From positions 1 to 18,593 of the IMG/VR virus record IMGVR_UViG_2534681832_000034: DNA of 18,593 nt; one strand, 5' to 3'. Shown here in pieces: positions 2,874 through 17,010 of the stretch (position 1 is its first letter; each line of letters opens with the position of its first letter). The position numbers were made by a program, and so were the translations under genes. The DNA comes from a virus (lineage: Duplodnaviria > Heunggongvirae > Uroviricota > Caudoviricetes). The notes under the pieces are model-generated. The model saw only the letters and a program-made list of their open reading frames with translations, did no database searches and had not been told where the DNA came from.

Positions 2874-2923
2874 TAGATTGCTCTAATCTGGAGTCACCTG
2901 GCGTTTTCAGTTTGAGGTCGGAG

Positions 2924-3169
2924 ATGCAATCTGATTTTTTACAGTTAGCGATCGCTTTTGCAGGATATGTTTGTATTGGCTTCTGTGTATACATGATCAG
3001 CCGAAAAATGCTTGTCGATATCGACCGCAAAGAACGAGCAGAGGAGATCTTAGTATGGATTTTCTTTGGCGCGGTCTGGCCATTAGGGATCATGTTTGCT
3101 GCAACATTTCTTCTGATGTGGATATTCACCCTTCCAGGTGATTTCTATAGAAAAAAAGCCAGACATTGA
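2924..3169 (+). CDS. Small membrane protein, 81 aa, two predicted TM helices
   Basis: ATG 2924 preceded by GAGGTCGGAG; hydrophobic stretches LAIAFAGYVCIGFCVYMI and ILVWIFFGAVWPLGIMFAATFLLMWIF; TGA 3167-3169. Confidence 0.55.
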   Translation: MQSDFLQLAIAFAGYVCIGFCVYMISRKMLVDIDRKERAEEILVWIFFGAVWPLGIMFAATFLLMWIFTLPGDFYRKKARH

Positions 3170-3239
3170 TACAATCGTTGCGGGTGCTTGAGGCTATCTG
3201 CTTCAGGCATTACCCGAAAAGCAGATAGAAGAAAGCCCC

Positions 3240-3307
3240 AGATAACATTACGCGTCCTGCAAGACGCTTAACATTAATCTGAGGCCATATCTATGCTTAG
3301 CATACGT
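3240..3307 (-). ncRNA. sok: Predicted Sok-like antisense RNA covering the mok start region
   Basis: Minus-strand promoter: -35 TTGACC (plus 3337-3332), 18-bp spacer, -10 TAATCT (plus 3313-3308). The transcript would run antisense across the mok ATG (3293). A stem GCGTC/GACGC at about 3251-3266 is a candidate 3' structure. Ends are approximate. Confidence 0.45.
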
Positions 3308-3499
3308 AGATTAGCCTCTTACCGACCAAAAGGTCAAGGAGAAGCAGGCTATGAAGCAGCAAAAAGCGATGTTAATCGCTCTGATCGTCATCTGTTTAAC
3401 CGTCATTGTGACGGCACTGGTAACGAGGAAAGACCTCTGCGAGGTACGAATCCGAACCGGCCAGACGGAGGTCACTGTCTTCACAGCCTACGAATCTGA
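3293..3499 (+). CDS. mok: mok-like overlapping reading frame (translation-coupling ORF of the hok locus)
   Basis: ATG 3293; 68-codon ORF overlapping almost all of hok in another frame, as in hok/mok/sok loci. Confidence 0.5.
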   Translation: MLSIRRLASYRPKGQGEAGYEAAKSDVNRSDRHLFNRHCDGTGNEERPLRGTNPNRPDGGHCLHSLRI

Positions 3500-3506
3500 A
3501 AGGTAA
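3351..3506 (+). CDS. hok: Hok/Gef-family type I toxin, 51 aa
   Basis: Translation MKQQKAMLIALIVICLTVIVTALVTRKDLCEVRIRTGQTEVTVFTAYESER matches the Hok family pattern (LIVxCLT...LTRKxLCExRxRxG..EV.AF.AYES). AAGGAG precedes the ATG. The leader (GGTGCTTGAGGC..., TAGCCTCTTACCG, CAAGGAGAAG) resembles the R1 hok mRNA as I remember it. Confidence 0.8.
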   Translation: MKQQKAMLIALIVICLTVIVTALVTRKDLCEVRIRTGQTEVTVFTAYESER

Positions 3507-3577
3507 GAGACCTGGCGGGGAGAGATCTCCGCCACTCTTAGTGTGTCAGGTATCCTCAATGCACCCTTTCATCTCCA

Positions 3578-3606
3578 AATAAAAAAGCTCCCGAAGGAGC
3601 TTTAAA
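3578..3606. terminator. Bidirectional rho-independent terminator (end of minus-strand late operon; probable hok mRNA 3' end)
   Basis: Stem GCTCC (3587-3591), loop CGAA, GGAGC (3596-3600), flanked by A6 upstream and TTT downstream, so the minus-strand transcript ends hairpin + U6. Confidence 0.7.
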
Positions 3607-3622
3607 ATACAAGGGATGACTC

Positions 3623-4132
3623 TTAATCCCACTCAATCCAGTTGTAGACGATACGAAGTGACGGGCGCACAGCGGCAGTCACATCTTCGGTACTAAAGTC
3701 GATTGCATCACTGTAGATTTTGCAGTCCAACATTTCAATTGTTGTAGCAGCTTTTGTTACAGCGTTAACCCCGGAAGATTTGGATTCAGGGGTAGCAGCC
3801 ATCGTGATATCAACATAGTCCTTCGCCGCAATGCGATCCTTGATGAACTGAAGAATATCGCCTTCGATAGTCTCCACGCACTGGACCTGGATTTCCCCAG
3901 AGTTTCGAATTGGTCCGTGCTGGTTGAACTTCACACCATTCGGACCATAGTCCTCCACATCCTCGCGGGTCATTTCAGGAATTTGCGACGTGCGAACCAG
4001 TACGCTGATATCTTCATGGCCTGCAACAGTGAGCTGGAATTCAGAAGATACCAGTCGTTCGCCTTTGGCCGCGTTGGCAGTATAGCGGCCCTTAATAAAT
4101 TTACGGTTTCCCTTAGTGTTATTGTGCCCCAT
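3623..4132 (-). CDS. Late-operon structural/morphogenesis protein, 169 aa (function unassigned)
   Basis: ATG at 4132 (minus) with AAAGGA SD; TAA at 3623-3625; last gene before the terminator. Confidence 0.8.
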   Translation of the reverse strand: MGHNNTKGNRKFIKGRYTANAAKGERLVSSEFQLTVAGHEDISVLVRTSQIPEMTREDVEDYGPNGVKFNQHGPIRNSGEIQVQCVETIEGDILQFIKDRIAAKDYVDITMAATPESKSSGVNAVTKAATTIEMLDCKIYSDAIDFSTEDVTAAVRPSLRIVYNWIEWD

Positions 4133-4143
4133 ATAAAATCCTT

Positions 4144-4725
4144 TTACTGGAACGCCCGAACAATATCGGAGCTGTTATATATCGAAGAACCGGTCAACTG
4201 GAGGTTGACGGTGTTTTTCAGGAAATGCCCATTGCTGTCCCTGGGCGCATCGAGATCGAAACTTATGTCCTGGATAGCGACATCAATGATGTTGATCTGG
4301 CGACCAATGTTTAGCGTCACACGCTCCGGGATTCGACCACCAATACTGGCATCTTTAAGTTCCGGGCTAATCATCGCTGACAATGCGGCGATAGCTCCTG
4401 AAACCTCCGTGAATGGATCAAACAAAGCGATGAAAGTTACTGGCAGCGTGAAAGTTGGCGGTGTTCCCCCCTCCCAAACCATTAAGCTGTTCCAACGGGC
4501 CACCGACGTTGTTTCAGTACCAACCTGCGCAAAACCACTGAAGGCACCAGCAACAGACCCCATGGACATACCGGTAAACGGCGCTTCCCAATTCTGGGCC
4601 ATGTTCATTGCTGCCCCCTGGCTGATATATCCGGTAACCTGGTACTGAGAGTTCGTTAAAGTAACTTTCAGAAATGGCGATACACCGTCAGCCTGGCTGT
4701 AAACCCCATAAGGTATAGGTGCCAT
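4144..4725 (-). CDS. Late-operon structural/morphogenesis protein, 193 aa (function unassigned)
   Basis: ATG at 4725 (minus); Gly/Ala/Ser/Thr-rich composition typical of virion proteins; packed 11 nt upstream of the next gene. Confidence 0.8.
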   Translation of the reverse strand: MAPIPYGVYSQADGVSPFLKVTLTNSQYQVTGYISQGAAMNMAQNWEAPFTGMSMGSVAGAFSGFAQVGTETTSVARWNSLMVWEGGTPPTFTLPVTFIALFDPFTEVSGAIAALSAMISPELKDASIGGRIPERVTLNIGRQINIIDVAIQDISFDLDAPRDSNGHFLKNTVNLQLTGSSIYNSSDIVRAFQ

Positions 4726-4760
4726 TCAAGTTAAAGGCCGGAGTTCTCCGGCCTCCTCCT

Positions 4761-5576
4761 TTAGCCAAGGCGCTTACGGCGCAGTTTCATTGACTTTTTG
4801 CGGGCAAGTTTTGCCGCACCCGTCTGGGCTTTTCGACGCGCTTTTTTCAGCGCCGATTTTTGAGCCGCAGTCAGACGTTTTTTACGCAGGCGTTTACGGA
4901 TGAGTTTGATCTCACCGTTACGAACAACCTTCTTAAATGCTTCAGTCAGCATTTCATCAGAAGTGCCAGCAACAACAAACGCCGCTTCCAGTTCGTCACG
5001 GTCGTCGCTATCTAAACCAGCGATAGAGGCACCAACATCAGCAGCTGCGTCGTCGTCTTCATCGTCAGCCAGTGCTTCGATCAGGTCATCATCTACACCG
5101 CATGCTGCGAGGAAGTCAGCAACATTTGCCCATGCTTCGTTATAGGCATCGTCCTGTTCTTCTGTAACTTCGGAGTCGTCGTCATCAGAGATACCAGCGA
5201 TAGCCTGAACGAAACCATCAAGGGAGTCGAAAGTCAGATCACCGCTATCAGCCCAGGCGAAAACGGCGTCGGCCGCATCACTCAACGCATTCTGCATAGC
5301 ACTTCTATTTGCAGCTTCCAGAATCATCTGGTGCGCCTGTTCGACGGTCCATTCTTTACCGTCTTTCCCTTCCAGGATTTGCTCAGGAGCCGGGGCAGAT
5401 GGAACGTTATCGTTAGTCTGTGCCGCCGGTTCCGGATTATTATTAATAACCGGATCTGTTGGCTGTTCGGCGCTTGCTCGGGCAGACTCCATCAGCTGCA
5501 CAGGATCAGAGTTCAAAGCGAAACGAGACAGTCCATTCCCCAAAAATGCCCCGGATTGAAAAAAGTTTTTGCTCAT
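4761..5576 (-). CDS. Highly acidic protein with poly-basic C-terminal tail, 271 aa (possible scaffold or internal/DNA-associated virion protein)
   Basis: ATG at 5576 (minus) with AAGGGA SD; long Asp/Glu runs (DDDDSEVTEEQDD, DDEDDDAAAD) followed by a C-terminal ~50 aa rich in Lys/Arg. Confidence 0.8.
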   Translation of the reverse strand: MSKNFFQSGAFLGNGLSRFALNSDPVQLMESARASAEQPTDPVINNNPEPAAQTNDNVPSAPAPEQILEGKDGKEWTVEQAHQMILEAANRSAMQNALSDAADAVFAWADSGDLTFDSLDGFVQAIAGISDDDDSEVTEEQDDAYNEAWANVADFLAACGVDDDLIEALADDEDDDAAADVGASIAGLDSDDRDELEAAFVVAGTSDEMLTEAFKKVVRNGEIKLIRKRLRKKRLTAAQKSALKKARRKAQTGAAKLARKKSMKLRRKRLG

Positions 5577-11548: not shown

Positions 11549-11953
11549 TTATTTGCTAAGAGCAGCGAATAATCGTTCGAAATCGATAGTATCTATAGCA
11601 CGCGTAAGCGCCGGAAGTTCAGCCTCAAAGTACCCGTGTCGATCGTAAAAGAAGGGACCGAAGAGCGAGGCATGTTGGATTCTACTTCGCCCCAGCCCGG
11701 ACACACAGTTAAGCCCATTACCGGCTAAAAGGCTAAAAAACTTCTCTGGATTATCGTGGTAAAGCTGAGAATCAATGGTGGCGGTTAACTCTTCCATAGG
11801 GAAGCACACCCGCCCTGTCTCCCAGGGATATTTAGTCCGAAGCATAAACATTGCTTTCAGCAATTCACATTGAGCGCGGATCGCGTCCGGTTCATAGCCA
11901 GATATGGAGACATAAGCCACGTCCCTCATTCCTGCGTCATCTTTGAAAGTCAC
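11549..11953 (-). CDS. C-terminal portion of the amber-split gene (annotated alone it is a 134-aa ORF with a poor start)
   Basis: No convincing SD at GTG 11953 or ATG 11929; in the same frame as the upstream ORF and separated from it by one TAG; terminator directly after its stop. Confidence 0.5.
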   Translation of the reverse strand: MTFKDDAGMRDVAYVSISGYEPDAIRAQCELLKAMFMLRTKYPWETGRVCFPMEELTATIDSQLYHDNPEKFFSLLAGNGLNCVSGLGRSRIQHASLFGPFFYDRHGYFEAELPALTRAIDTIDFERLFAALSK

Positions 11954-12022
11954 GATAGAAGTAACATCCAGTTCTTTTTCGAAAGAGCGAGCAGCATCTA
12001 CTGGACGCTGAAGTAAATCATT

Positions 12023-12358
12023 CTACTTAATGCGCTCGAGAATCCCTCCCCACATATCATTTAGATATTCGATATGAGCCAAAACCTTATCAAGACACTC
12101 TCGTGTAAACCATTCAGTATGCCCGCCACCGGCGCTTTTCTCCCACGGCGCATTCCAGGGGAAAAAGGTTGCGTGTAAAGCCCGCTCAAGATTAACCATT
12201 GCCAAACGCGTACCACGATAGACCCGTGAAAGCGCAAAATCGGGACTCACTTGTAGCCCTTTAAACCGTGCCAATGGACCACATGAAATGCCGATTTTAA
12301 AAGTATCTCCGTTCTCCGGCACCAGAACGTAGAGGTAGTGTTGTTTCTCTTCTTGCAT
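12023..12358 (-). CDS. GIY-YIG / T5orf172-like domain protein, 111 aa as annotated (ends at an in-frame amber)
   Basis: ATG at 12358; motif HYLYVLVPENGDTFKIGISCGPLARFKGL resembles the GIY-YIG/T5orf172 core; stop is TAG at 12023-12025. Confidence 0.6.
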   Translation of the reverse strand: MQEEKQHYLYVLVPENGDTFKIGISCGPLARFKGLQVSPDFALSRVYRGTRLAMVNLERALHATFFPWNAPWEKSAGGGHTEWFTRECLDKVLAHIEYLNDMWGGILERIK

Positions 12359-12650: not shown

Positions 12651-13535
12651 TTATGGATTGCGCTTATGGATCTGAAAGCCGATTTTCCTGCCGTTTTTTA
12701 TCTCTGAAAATTTAAGATATTCAATAGCTTCCAAATCTTTCATGGCTTTTCTGATAACGCTATTTTGCACGCTAACGGATGATTTGAGATTAAGCCTTGC
12801 TCTAAGGCGCTCAATGCTGACAGGTGCCGGGTTGGCGGGTAGAGCCTCAAAGAATGTATACAGTACCTTGGCCGTCTCTTTGCGCCCGAGCTTATCCAGC
12901 ATCTTCAGCTTCAGGATTCGCTTATAGTCAACATAGTAAAGTTCAGATAGCTGTTTCTGCGGCTGGATCTCGATAACATCAAGCTCGGTATTCAGGCTGC
13001 TATATGCCAACAAGTTGACGTTAATGTTATTGAGATGACCTTTTGCCGCCGGGAAGCGGAATTTGACAACTGTCTGCTGAATGCGTGTCAGAGAGTCATC
13101 AATACTTTTACGGAACGCCTTTGAAAGGCGCTTACGTGGATAGCCGCATCGATCGGCAAACTCGGAGAATGGCAGGGTGATTATGCCGTCATCATCAGGT
13201 GCGTAGTCAAACAACGCGGAGGTTATGCCCACCCACACCTTAAAATCAGTATCCATATCCAGGCGTGGACCATGAATTTCAATTCCCTCATAGCCTTCCT
13301 GCTCAACAATTTTGAGGCTTGATAGTTCTTCGGTTGCGTTCGTTGTGTTTGTAGTAACTGACGATCCGCGACGTAGTGCCACATTGGTAGATTTTAAGGT
13401 TGGCACAAACACACCTAAGCGCAACAAAGCAATGGGTTGTATAGTGCTATTGTTATTGGGTTTCAGGCTGTGGATTTCTCCTGTATTTCCTGCAACTTCT
13501 TCAACGCTAAGGAAGCCTTTATTTTCTTCCAGCAT
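12651..13535 (-). CDS. repA: Iteron-binding plasmid replication initiator RepA, 294 aa
   Basis: ATG at 13535 with GGAG SD (GGAGAAACCACG-ATG); the ORF track's 13592 start is a TTG lying inside the origin region. Flanked by iteron arrays on both sides. Confidence 0.85.
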   Translation of the reverse strand: MLEENKGFLSVEEVAGNTGEIHSLKPNNNSTIQPIALLRLGVFVPTLKSTNVALRRGSSVTTNTTNATEELSSLKIVEQEGYEGIEIHGPRLDMDTDFKVWVGITSALFDYAPDDDGIITLPFSEFADRCGYPRKRLSKAFRKSIDDSLTRIQQTVVKFRFPAAKGHLNNINVNLLAYSSLNTELDVIEIQPQKQLSELYYVDYKRILKLKMLDKLGRKETAKVLYTFFEALPANPAPVSIERLRARLNLKSSVSVQNSVIRKAMKDLEAIEYLKFSEIKNGRKIGFQIHKRNP

Positions 13536-13582
13536 CGTGGTTTCTCCATATGTGGCGCGGCCTGGCGTCATCTGGATTGCAG

Positions 13583-13826
13583 TTATCAACAACTGTGAAT
13601 AGTCAGGCTCTAAAATCGCGTACAGTCAATGTTTCTGTCGCATATAGTCAACAATAAATCGCGTGCAGTCAACAATAAATCGTGCACAGTCAACATAAAA
13701 TCGCGTATAGTCAATGTTGATCCCATTTCAGGCCAGAAATGGCGCGGCTTACAGCGATCCGGGATCTTCTTTGGATCTTCCTGGGTTCTCTTTAGGATCT
13801 GTTTATTGGATCTATGCTGTGGATAA
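13583..13826. promoter_or_regulatory. Plasmid replication origin: DnaA boxes + iterons + GATC cluster
   Basis: DnaA-box-like TTATCAACA (13583-13591); perfect DnaA box TGTGGATAA (13818-13826); six GATC sites between 13719 and 13812. Confidence 0.75.
13613..13714. repeat. Origin iterons (incC-like): five direct repeats at ~21-bp phasing
   Basis: AAATCGCGTACAGTCAA (13613-13629), CTGTCGCATATAGTCAA, AAATCGCGTGCAGTCAA, AAATCGTGCACAGTCAA, AAATCGCGTATAGTCAA (13698-13714), all in one orientation directly upstream of repA. Confidence 0.85.
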
Positions 13827-14861: not shown

Positions 14862-15082
14862 GTCTTCCTCCTGAAGAAAAATTATCAATGAAGTCCTTTG
14901 TTACCGTGCCGCTTTGTTTAATTCATCAAGAACAGAATCAGGAACCAAAGCGGCGACTACGCTGGCTGTGCTGGCCTTATTTGCTGATGCTTCCGCAAGC
15001 GCGGTACCGATAGCATGGTTATAAGCAGTGAACCGCCCCGGAAATCCTGGAGACTAAACTCCCTGAGAAAGAGGTAAACAGG

Positions 15083-15409
15083 ATGACTAAAAATACTCGT
15101 TTTTCCCCCGAAGTCCGTCAGCGGGCGATTCGTATGGTTCTGGAAAGTCAGGATGAATATGACTCACAGTGGGCGGCAATTTGTTCCATTGCCCCAAAGA
15201 TTGGCTGTACGCCGGAGACTCTGCGTGTCTGGGTTCGCCAGCATGAGCGGGATACCGGGGGCGGTGATGGTGGGCTCACCAGCGCTGAACGTCAGCGTCT
15301 GAAAGAGCTGGAACGTGAAAATCGTGAACTGCGCCGCAGTAACGATATCCTTCGCCAGGCTTCCGCTTATTTTGCGAAGGCGGAGTTCGACCGCCTCTGG
15401 AAAAAATGA
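15083..15409 (+). CDS. IS3-family transposase OrfA (HTH, leucine-zipper)
   Basis: ATG 15083; [21 protein letters not shown]... typical IS3-family OrfA; ends in the A-run frameshift window. Confidence 0.9.
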
Positions 15410-16296
15410 TGCCACTGCTGGATAAGCTGCGTGAGCAGTACGGGGTCGGACCGGTATGCAGCGAACTGCATATTGCCCCGTCAACGTATTACCATTGTCA
15501 GCAACAGCGACATCATCCGGATAAACGCAGTGCCCGTGCGCAGCACGACGACTGGCTGAAGAGAGAGATACAGCGCGTATACGATGAAAATCATCAGGTG
15601 TACGGTGTGCGTAAAGTCTGGCGTCAGTTGTTACGGGAAGGAATCAGGGTGGCCAGATGTACAGTGGCACGTCTCATGGCGGTTATGGGACTTGCCGGTG
15701 TTCTCCGGGGTAAAAAGGTCCGTACGACCATCAGCCGGAAAGCCGTTGCCGCAGGCGACCGCGTAAACCGTCAGTTCGTGGCAGAACGACCTGACCAGCT
15801 GTGGGTGGCTGATTTTACTTACGTCAGCACATGGCAGGGCTTCGTCTATGTGGCGTTTATCATTGATGTGTTTGCCGGATACATCGTGGGGTGGCGGGTC
15901 TCATCGTCTATGGAAACGACATTCGTGCTGGATGCGCTGGAGCAGGCGTTGTGGGCCCGTCGTCCGTCTGGCACCATCCATCACAGCGATAAAGGCTCTC
16001 AGTATGTGTCACTGGCCTATACGGAGCGACTAAAAGAAGCCGGATTACTGGCATCAACAGGGAGTACAGGCGACTCGTATGACAACGCGATGGCTGAGAG
16101 CATCAATGGTCTTTACAAAGCGGAGGTAATACACCGTAAGAGCTGGAAAAACCGTGCAGAAGTGGAACTGGCCACACTAACGTGGGTGGACTGGTATAAC
16201 AATCGACGATTGCTGGGAAGGCTGGGCCATACTCCTCCGGCAGAAGCAGAAAAAGCTTATTATGCTTCCATCGGAAACGATGATCTGGCAGCCTGA
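15406..16296 (+). CDS. IS3-family transposase OrfB (DDE catalytic domain), expressed as OrfAB by -1 frameshift
   Basis: DDE-type motifs ([23 protein letters not shown]); -1 overlap with orfA at A-AAA-AAT-G (15400-15409). Confidence 0.9.
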
Positions 16297-17010
16297 GTTC
16301 ACAGATAAAACACTCTCCAGGAAACCCGGGGCGGTTCACAGTTATGGCTACGTTGGCGCTTTCATTCGCTCGTTCATACTGCTGTTGTAACGCAGTTGTG
16401 GGTGCTGTTGTCTGGTTGAAAACAACCCCAAACTGTTCAGTTGCTACTTTCAGAGATTCAATTTGCTCTTCTGTTAGTGCTGGTGGGGGAGTGGCAGTGC
16501 CGCCGCCTGAACCAGAGCCTGACGAGCTTTCTGAGCCAGTGTTAAGGGCCTGGTTAATCTCCCCCATTGCAGCGACTAAACTTGATGTATTAAGCGCGTT
16601 AACAGCGTCCTCAAGCGATTTAGTAATATTCACATCACCAATGGCAATAGAGATCGGCAGTTCTGAAACTTCTCGCTCATTAGCACGGCAGTAAACATCC
16701 CAACCAATATCGAGTTGAAGCAGCATTGACAGATCTGCATAACCAGCCAACAGGTCCGCGTGCTTAGTTGCCAGTTCTCCAATGTTCGTTAAGCCGGTTG
16801 TGGTTGTTCTGATCGTTGAAACATAGCTGGTAATAGTGTCGGGATAGACAATTGTATCCAGAATTAATCCGGTCAATTCTTCTGCAAGCAGTTTTGCTGT
16901 GTTAGCACTGTTTCGTGCCGATGTTATGGCACCAGGTGTTTTCATCCCACCGGCGGCGGCCAATTTTTTATATGCGGATAACTGGTAGTCTTTTTCCAGC
17001 ATGATATCTC

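Follow-up and report, generated by a model that had tools for sequence, protein, structure and literature searches.

Between positions 3148 and 3566 of the window (the whole stretch of 18,593 nucleotides of viral DNA analysed here, IMG/VR record IMGVR_UViG_2534681832_000034), we identified what is very probably a complete and uninterrupted hok/mok/sok type I toxin-antitoxin cassette. As judged from its sequence, it belongs to the prophage lineage of Rac and of 933W hokW, it is carried by a P1-like phage-plasmid, and its most likely role would be post-segregational killing alongside phd-doc. A complete hok/mok/sok locus had been claimed in a preliminary description of this DNA, and the Rfam and Pfam matches, the register of mok and Sok, and the fold of the tac and fbi elements all agree with that claim.

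Identification of the locus

The Rfam sok model RF01794 matched 3182-3356 on the plus strand over its entire length (model positions 1-157 of 157) with 114.9 bits against a gathering threshold of 59 (E = 5.8e-26). To calibrate this score, the model was run on reference loci, giving 118.3 bits for hokC/sokC of K-12, 113.5 for hokW/sokW of 933W, 111.1 for Rac and 87.2 for an R1-type locus. As the window falls within this range, it scores like bona fide hok/sok loci. The R1-type locus was retrieved with the R1 Hok protein sequence, a query that matched real plasmids at 100%.

At the protein level, the 51-aa ORF matched all 42 positions of the Pfam HOK_GEF profile (PF01848) with E = 2.4e-22 and 78.7 bits, the cut-off being 22, as well as phrog_251, which is described as MokW-like host killing (E = 4.9e-32). 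The NCBIfam Hok models did not reach their curated cut-offs, the Hok-family model giving 49.5 where 73 is required and HokA 38.1 where 89 is required, and the Mok peptide matched no family in Pfam or NCBIfam. At the DNA level, blastn showed 87.6-91% identity to the 933W and Rac hok loci, spanning exactly 3170-3566. In an alignment of five loci (window, Rac, 933W, hokC and R1-type), tac, the Shine-Dalgarno (SD) sequence of mok, the mok ATG, the sok hexamers, the SD of hok and fbi were all in register. The preliminary description had proposed a covariance-model search, a BLASTN comparison with hok/sok and an RNA fold for 5'/3' pairing, and all three bear it out: the RF01794 score is like that of the reference loci, the DNA identity places the window next to 933W and Rac, and the tac/fbi helix is present in the minimum free energy (MFE) structure described below.

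We give virtually no weight to the idea that these features arose by chance, as a short ORF plus hairpins unrelated to hok/sok. The single point in its favour is that a generic promoter scan missed the sok promoter, and it is refuted by the Rfam and Pfam E-values, by the roughly 88-91% DNA identity to annotated hok/mok/sok loci, by a fold z-score of -8.8 and by the calibration on reference loci.

Position of the cassette in the P1-like genome

The surroundings of the cassette are P1-like, with the following features at and between the two junctions:

2888-3580, plus strand: segment replacing rlfA-rlfB-pmgF, which holds the 81-aa ORF and hok/sok (homology to P1 AF234172 ends at 2887 and resumes at 3581)
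2924-3169, plus strand: 81-aa ORF (phrog_3772, E = 1.7e-53 over residues 28-108 of a longer ORF; hypothetical protein in NZ_CP057105)
3584-3603, no strand assigned: hairpin, terminator of bplB (minus strand) and possible weak stop for hok transcription, in the P1-homologous block from 3581

Upstream, 804-2887 matches P1 AF234172 (end of ant, kilA and repL) at 98.6%, and downstream, 3581-4769 matches P1 bplB and pmgG. Between repL and bplB, canonical P1 (AF234172 / NC_005856) has no hok/sok and carries rlfA, rlfB and pmgF instead, 1826 bp compared with 693 bp in the window. On the left, the break falls within the C1 operator Op55, of which ATTGCTCTAAT is kept at 2877-2887. Because P1 homology stops at 2887 and resumes at 3581, the hok/sok locus was acquired, and the earlier suspicion that hok is no part of canonical P1 and represents an acquired module holds, with 2888-3580 taking the place of rlfA-rlfB-pmgF. 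This P1 segment is one of eight variable regions described in P1-like phage-plasmids (PMC9603915). By comparison with the P1 sequence, the cassette is accessory cargo in a subset of P1-like elements.

The 81-aa ORF had no family in Pfam, NCBIfam or PADLOC. It is co-acquired with hok and lies outside the lambdoid-type hok block. The lambdoid homology covers exactly the stretch from the -10 to fbi (3170-3566), thus the hok -35 and any terminator are supplied by the flanks.

Genes, promoters and the predicted Sok RNA

The genes and transcription signals of the cassette are:

3148-3175, plus strand: hok (mok-hok) promoter, -35 TAGAAA at 3148-3153, 16-nt spacer, TGn-extended -10 TACAAT at 3170-3175 (promoter scan)
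3182-3606, plus strand: predicted full-length mok-hok mRNA (Rfam model start at 3182; fold)
3281-3284, plus strand: SD of mok, GAGG (GAGGC unchanged throughout the five-locus alignment; masked by ucb in the MFE of the full-length RNA)
3293-3499, plus strand: mok reading frame, 68 aa (ORF list; mostly identical to Rac Mok; phrog_37205)
3336-3341, plus strand: SD of hok, AAGGAG (within the block AAGGAGAAG, invariant in the five-locus alignment)
3351-3506, plus strand: hok toxin gene, 51 aa (Pfam HOK_GEF, phrog_251; identical DNA annotated hokD in NZ_CP123199)
3308-3337, minus strand: sok promoter, -35 TTGACC at 3337-3332, 18-nt spacer, -10 TAATCT at 3313-3308 (read directly; aligned to reference loci)
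3225-3301, minus strand: predicted Sok antisense RNA (annotated ends of 933W SokW and K-12 SokC mapped onto the window)

Both the 51-aa Hok-family ORF and the overlapping mok-like frame noted in the preliminary description were recovered. The ATG frame of mok overlaps hok with its start offset by 58 nt from the hok start, so mok is in a different frame from hok. It begins and ends at the positions of the annotated Rac mok, and mokC and mokW share its start position.

The -10 of the hok promoter is in register with that of the Rac, 933W, hokC and R1-type loci and ends 6 nt ahead of position 1 of the Rfam model. G3182 is the most likely start of the mok-hok transcript. Where the predicted mRNA ends is uncertain: the analogy with R1 would place its 3' end at about 3573, and the P1 hairpin would place it near 3606. 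The reason is that the native terminator seen in Rac is missing and that a terminator is predicted at the P1 hairpin (3584-3603) for the minus strand only. We considered this hairpin as the cassette's own terminator and rejected it, since it belongs to the P1 backbone. The interval 3183-3606 proposed earlier thus contains the locus, with two corrections at its borders: the start moves to G3182, with the promoter from 3148 just outside, and the hairpin at its far end is part of P1.

An antisense promoter had also been claimed earlier, and TTGACC and TAATCT are indeed present on the minus strand, aligned with the reference sok promoters: the hexamers lie in register with the R1-type TTGCGC / 17 nt / TATCCT and also with those of hokC, Rac and hokW. 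A generic sigma-70 scan did not list this promoter, since the -10 agrees with the consensus at no more than 3/6 positions, and we accept it on the grounds of the alignment with the R1, hokC and hokW reference loci. Position 3301 corresponds to the annotated 5' end of both SokW and SokC, whose 3' ends fall at 3231 and 3225, respectively. Between Rac and the window, 2 of the first 25 nt of the Sok 5' region are different. The predicted Sok comprises a 5' single-stranded tail, a long hairpin at 3240-3281 and a U-rich tail, and covers the SD of mok and the mok start codon. It folds at -32.9 kcal/mol from 3301 to 3225 (z = -6.0). Its terminator hairpin has an extra GC-rich tip that is common to Rac and 933W and absent from hokC and R1. 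Because of this tip, the predicted Sok is 71-77 nt long (3301 to about 3225-3231), longer than the roughly 65 nt first assumed.

RNA elements, folding and covariation

The elements that could govern folding of the mok-hok mRNA, as defined for hok/sok (PMC9841398), are:

3182-3193, plus strand: tac, 5' translational activator element, GGGUGCUUGAGG (pairs with 3554-3566 in the full-length MFE)
3194-3228, plus strand: leader hairpin, arms CTATCTGCTT at 3194-3203 and AAGCAGATAG at 3219-3228 (upper tac stem; Rfam structure line)
3233-3239, plus strand: ucb, anti-SD of mok, AAGCCCC (partner of the mok SD at 3281-3285 in the closed form, and of tac in the open form given by Rfam)
3314-3318, plus strand: dcb, GCCUC (Rfam structure; pairs with the mok SD in the open form)
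3513-3534, plus strand: GC-rich 3'-UTR hairpin, presumed protective 3' stem of the processed mRNA (inverted repeat; role of the last stem-loop according to PMC9841398)
3554-3566, plus strand: fbi, fold-back inhibitory element CCUCAA-U-GCACCC (12 pairs with tac and one bulged base in the MFE)

For the 427-nt RNA 3182-3608, the MFE structure has an energy of -164.6 kcal/mol (z = -8.8 relative to shuffled sequences) and includes the 5'/3' pairing. In this structure, CCTCAATGCACC at 3554-3565 faces GGTGCTTGAGG at 3183-3193, and the tac/fbi helix amounts to 12 bp with U3560 bulged. The near-complementarity of a 3' element to the 5' end had been noticed before; the pairing is confirmed by the MFE and by covariation, and fbi extends to C3566 instead of ending at 3565. 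In a similar way, the 10-bp inverted repeat reported in the leader is present, and its extent had been underestimated, as it is the top of a longer imperfect repeat of 21 nt (3183-3203 / 3219-3239), the tac/ucb stem. With the same folding, the tac/fbi pairing was recovered as a positive control in the R1-type RNA (nt 1-7 with 385-391), which we take to be 398 nt long following the Gerdes-lab literature, and in the Rac and 933W RNAs.

The MFE of the full-length RNA corresponds to the closed state, in which tac/fbi and ucb/SD-mok occur together. Imposing tac/ucb, and with it the open state, raises the energy by 6.8 kcal/mol in 3182-3608 and by 12.3 kcal/mol in 3182-3570. When fbi is removed (3182-3540), the two states differ by 0.5 kcal/mol, with the closed one favoured. 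Other partners are available for tac, namely 3201-3215 in nascent or truncated folds and also ucb at 3233-3239; nascent 5' fragments fold into a local tac hairpin at 3182-3215. Under constrained folding, the SD-mok/dcb pairing forms spontaneously once tac/ucb is enforced. In plain folding of 3'-truncated RNA, the open form was never the MFE, a metastable 5' hairpin with ucb/SD-mok appearing in its place. As the MFE of the truncated RNA stays closed, the folding supports the conformational switch as a near-isoenergetic change and does not predict it outright.

To look at conservation of the tac/fbi helix, 47 Hok loci from a scan of a genome collection were considered, the comparison covering those other than the Erwinia and short-contig loci. 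Wherever tac was recognisable (Escherichia, Kluyvera, Pantoea, Citrobacter, Photorhabdus), fbi was found 45-56 nt past the hok stop. The Photorhabdus and Citrobacter loci were missed by a motif-based search for tac and recovered by a motif-free search for long-range duplexes. The two strands of the helix read as follows:

Window: tac GGGUGC... with fbi ...GCACCC
Pantoea: tac GGGCGC... with fbi ...GCGCCC
Photorhabdus: tac GGGCGCUUGAGA with fbi UCUCAAGCGCCC
One Photorhabdus copy: U-G intermediate at position 4
Citrobacter: tac ...UUGAAG with fbi CUUCA...

Across 11 distinct haplotypes, 95.5% of the cells of this helix were paired, compared with 21-60% when the partner was slid, in an alignment that was assembled by hand and whose fbi segments were located partly by complementarity. 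Compensatory double changes occurred at 3 of the 12 tac/fbi pairs in the same haplotypes.

Proposed mechanism

By homology with R1 hok/sok (mechanism as in PMC9841398) and with the in silico support given above, we infer transcription, processing, toxicity and phenotype of the locus as follows. The extended -10 promoter would give rise to a stable mok-hok mRNA from 3182, whose 5' tac would be held in the local hairpin 3182-3215 while the RNA is nascent. In the full-length RNA, the tac/fbi pairing (3554-3566) together with ucb (3233-3239) would hide the SD of mok, allowing neither translation nor Sok binding. Slow trimming from the 3' end back to the hairpin at 3513-3534 would then remove fbi, and the leader could refold to tac/ucb and SD-mok/dcb, thereby exposing mok, to whose translation that of Hok would be coupled. 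As long as the plasmid is retained, the short-lived Sok would pair across the mok SD and start codon and lead to RNase III decay. Upon plasmid loss or a shut-off of transcription, Sok would decay first, so that Hok is made, resulting in inner-membrane damage and cell death.

Comparison with known systems

The closest relatives are hokW/mokW/sokW of 933W (AF125520) and hok/mok of Rac (MN652886), which share 87.6-91% DNA identity with the window across the functional unit 3170-3566. Like the window, they have a 51-aa Hok, a 68-aa mok frame, the extended tip of the Sok hairpin, tac, and one bulged base in fbi. This base is C in both relatives, whereas it is U in the window, and the window Hok differs in ending with ...TVFTAYESER. 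Both flanks are also different; the hok -35 and the downstream terminator of the window come from the P1-like context. Furthermore, 933W and Rac are integrated lambdoid prophages, while the replicon of the window is a plasmid prophage.

In the case of R1 hok/sok (parB), the likeness lies in the architecture, in the alternative pairings (tac/fbi, ucb/SD-mok, tac/ucb and SD-mok/dcb), in sok hexamers at homologous positions and in the match to RF01794, with 87.2 bits for the R1-type locus and 114.9 for the window. Unlike the prophage loci, R1 DNA is too diverged for blastn; its Hok has 52 aa, its tac reads GGCGC... with compensating changes in fbi, and its Sok hairpin is shorter. Post-segregational killing is proven for R1, whereas for the locus in the window it is a prediction.

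The K-12 locus hokC(gef)/mokC/sokC gave the best Rfam score (118.3) and has the tac of the window, and the SokC 5' end and the starts of both mok and hok lie at equivalent positions. Its fbi is cut off by IS186 at the position homologous to 3525, in contrast to the uninterrupted copy in the window; many sibling P1-like plasmids carry an IS insertion of this hokC type. A different picture is offered by K-12 hokD (relF), which is a decayed locus. Its toxin is closely similar, the K-12-type HokD in locus L017 differing from the window Hok at 4 residues, but the sequence upstream of it is relE, and a leader with tac, mok or sok is absent. As the window has the full regulatory apparatus that the K-12-type hokD is without, the name 'hokD' refers to the protein and not to the system.

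Finally, the P1 plasmid prophage has phd-doc as an addiction module too, so that the presumed biological role of the two is alike. The phd-doc module is of type II (protein antitoxin), sits at another locus and belongs to the conserved P1 core, whereas hok/sok is of type I (RNA antitoxin) and accessory.

Distribution, insertions and annotation

The same arrangement was found at at least 99% identity in the phage records MH422554 (where the CDS is annotated MokW), MH445380, MH445381, phi456 and Ro157c2YLVW, and identical DNA carries the PGAP name hokD in RefSeq plasmids. Among 680 PLSDB records with bplB, 475 matched a probe for the hok 3' UTR, 227 of these without interruption; about 190 further PLSDB records were split at 3527, an estimate from an evenly spaced sample of rows. 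These counts suggest that the cassette is present in roughly 60% of the approximately 680 P1-like PLSDB plasmids and that roughly 40-45% of the copies are interrupted. The copies on P1-like plasmids are 95-100% identical.

The interruptions are due to IS186/IS421, which splits the cassette between hok and fbi, with a hotspot at 3518-3527 in the 3'-UTR hairpin; NZ_AP027620 carries one such interrupted allele. At locus L007 the insertion is accompanied by a 10-bp duplication (GGGAGAGATC), and the IS186 junction in K-12 hokC maps to 3525 of the window. With roughly 40-45% of the P1-like copies interrupted, an intact locus is evidently dispensable for the element.

In the literature on P1-like elements we found no explicit description of hok/sok and no dissection of its RNA elements; the nearest statement is that of an 'antibacterial toxin' in place of rlfA-rlfB-pmgF (PMC6906374). 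A 2025-26 survey describes thousands of Hok homologs in phages and plasmids, enriched in prophages and large plasmids (10.1101/2025.08.07.668861). The cassette is already known in P1-like elements: hundreds of public records name the gene, and as a toxin-antitoxin system under RNA control it is a textbook case, in a mobile element expected to carry such cargo. The remaining gap is one of annotation and not of biology: annotations of P1-like phage-plasmids give the toxin CDS only (hokD or MokW) and leave out both mok and sok as well as the RNA elements. Resistance genes, ESBL genes among them, are spread by P1-like phage-plasmids. A second addiction module based on RNA in most of these plasmids, nearly half of its copies split by IS186/IS421, would be relevant to studies of plasmid curing and stability.

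Possible biological roles

By analogy with R1, the most likely role is that of a second addiction module, which would kill plasmid-free segregants of the low-copy prophage-plasmid alongside phd-doc. It is less likely that the cassette is a structurally intact passenger, silent or too weak for post-segregational killing, that hitch-hikes in a recombination-prone variable region. Its lineage, that of prophage and chromosomal hok, fits such a passenger, as the chromosomal hokA, hokB and hokC reportedly fail at post-segregational killing (Pedersen & Gerdes 1999, as cited in 10.1101/2025.08.07.668861). The same can be said of the 40-45% of P1-like copies split at the 3'-UTR hairpin, with the element apparently not lost, and of phd-doc being already at hand, phd and doc counting among the most conserved genes of P1-like phage-plasmids (PMC9603915). 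Against a mere passenger speak the regulatory elements, all of them intact and in register, and the presence of the cassette at 95-100% identity in roughly 60% of the P1-like plasmids. Moreover, according to the survey, diverse Hok homologs are toxic irrespective of their location (10.1101/2025.08.07.668861).

We consider it rather improbable that phage exclusion (abortive infection) is the main role, where a lytic phage would shut off host transcription, Sok would decay and Hok would kill the lysogen before the phage cycle ends. Such exclusion was reported for R1 hok/sok against T4 (Pecota & Wood 1996, as described by a citing paper), and temperate phages often have defence cargo in variable regions, of which rlfA-rlfB-pmgF is one (PMC9603915). 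However, neither Hok nor the 81-aa ORF had a match in PADLOC-DB, so the curated defence libraries do not support a defence function, and the survey finds no enrichment of hok near defence systems (10.1101/2025.08.07.668861). A link to the P1 lysis-lysogeny circuit, with an induction-coupled, membrane-damaging Hok affecting lysis timing or superinfection exclusion, seems to us highly improbable. It is raised by the start of the replacement inside Op55, directly 3' of the C1-controlled kilA-repL operon, because of which read-through upon induction could carry hok with a 5' extension. If this were the case, the extension would prevent normal tac/fbi closure, and selection for escape from the cost of Hok would account for the frequent IS186 insertions. 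As a side remark on the roles named here, phage exclusion and post-segregational killing are compatible and not mutually exclusive.

Insertions in the hok 3' untranslated region

The 3' UTR of hok contains a hairpin, rich in GC, that is a hotspot for IS186/IS421 (insertion site at window 3518-3527). Many P1-like plasmids carry an IS4-family element of 1.3 kb at this hairpin, e.g. at 3879-5237 of the Hok locus L007 (NZ_AP027620), and its insertion is accompanied by a 10-bp duplication, GGGAGAGATC. In these interrupted copies hok is cut off from its fold-back inhibitory element (fbi). Both the insertion site and the IS end sequence match those of the IS186 copy at hokC of K-12. Based on an evenly spaced sample of rows of the plasmid database PLSDB, roughly 40-45% of the P1-like hok copies are estimated to look interrupted.

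Identical Hok segments in other assemblies

Two very short contigs from the genome-collection scan encode stretches of Hok that match the protein of the window at 100% identity, namely L018 (JQCU01000506.1, 275 bp), in an assembly labelled Acinetobacter idrijaensis, and L030 (NZ_JPLE01000323.1, 431 bp), in an assembly labelled Xanthomonas pisi. Enterobacterial contamination of both assemblies is the most likely origin of these segments.

Left edge of the replaced segment

Regarding the replacement of rlfA-rlfB-pmgF, the left recombination breakpoint lies within the C1 repressor operator Op55 (window 2877-2893), of which the conserved half ATTGCTCTAAT is retained and the remainder replaced. One further ORF travels together with hok in this replacement:

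2924-3169, 81-aa ORF, phrog_3772

No family match was obtained for this ORF in Pfam, NCBIfam or PADLOC. Its 3' end contains a terminator-like hairpin (3126-3141), directly upstream of the hok promoter.

Other features of the window

Compared with P1, MH422554 and NZ_CP057105, repL (2029-2875) carries an A7 to A6 change at about position 2550 (tract 2545-2556), which splits the gene into ORFs 2029-2607 and 2604-2873. This is either a true frameshift, in which case the initiator of lytic replication would be inactivated, or an assembly error in the homopolymer tract.

The GIY-YIG nuclease gene (11549-12358) is present as two ORFs (11549-11953 and 12023-12358), whereas its counterpart in NZ_CP057105 is intact (810 nt). 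As there is no indel between these two nuclease sequences, a nonsense substitution is implied as the change splitting the window copy.

The counterpart of the window's plasmid replication initiator (12651-13592) in the near-identical plasmid carries a RepB-family annotation. This initiator may represent the p0111-type replicon found in P1-like elements, as opposed to the IncY repA of canonical P1.

Lastly, comparison with NZ_CP057105 places an IS3-family insertion at 15030-16338, where a hypothetical gene is disrupted. The following parts of the element could be identified:

15083-15409, IS3-family orfA
15406-16296, IS3-family orfB
15364-15480, ALIL frameshift pseudoknot of the element (121.5 bits)
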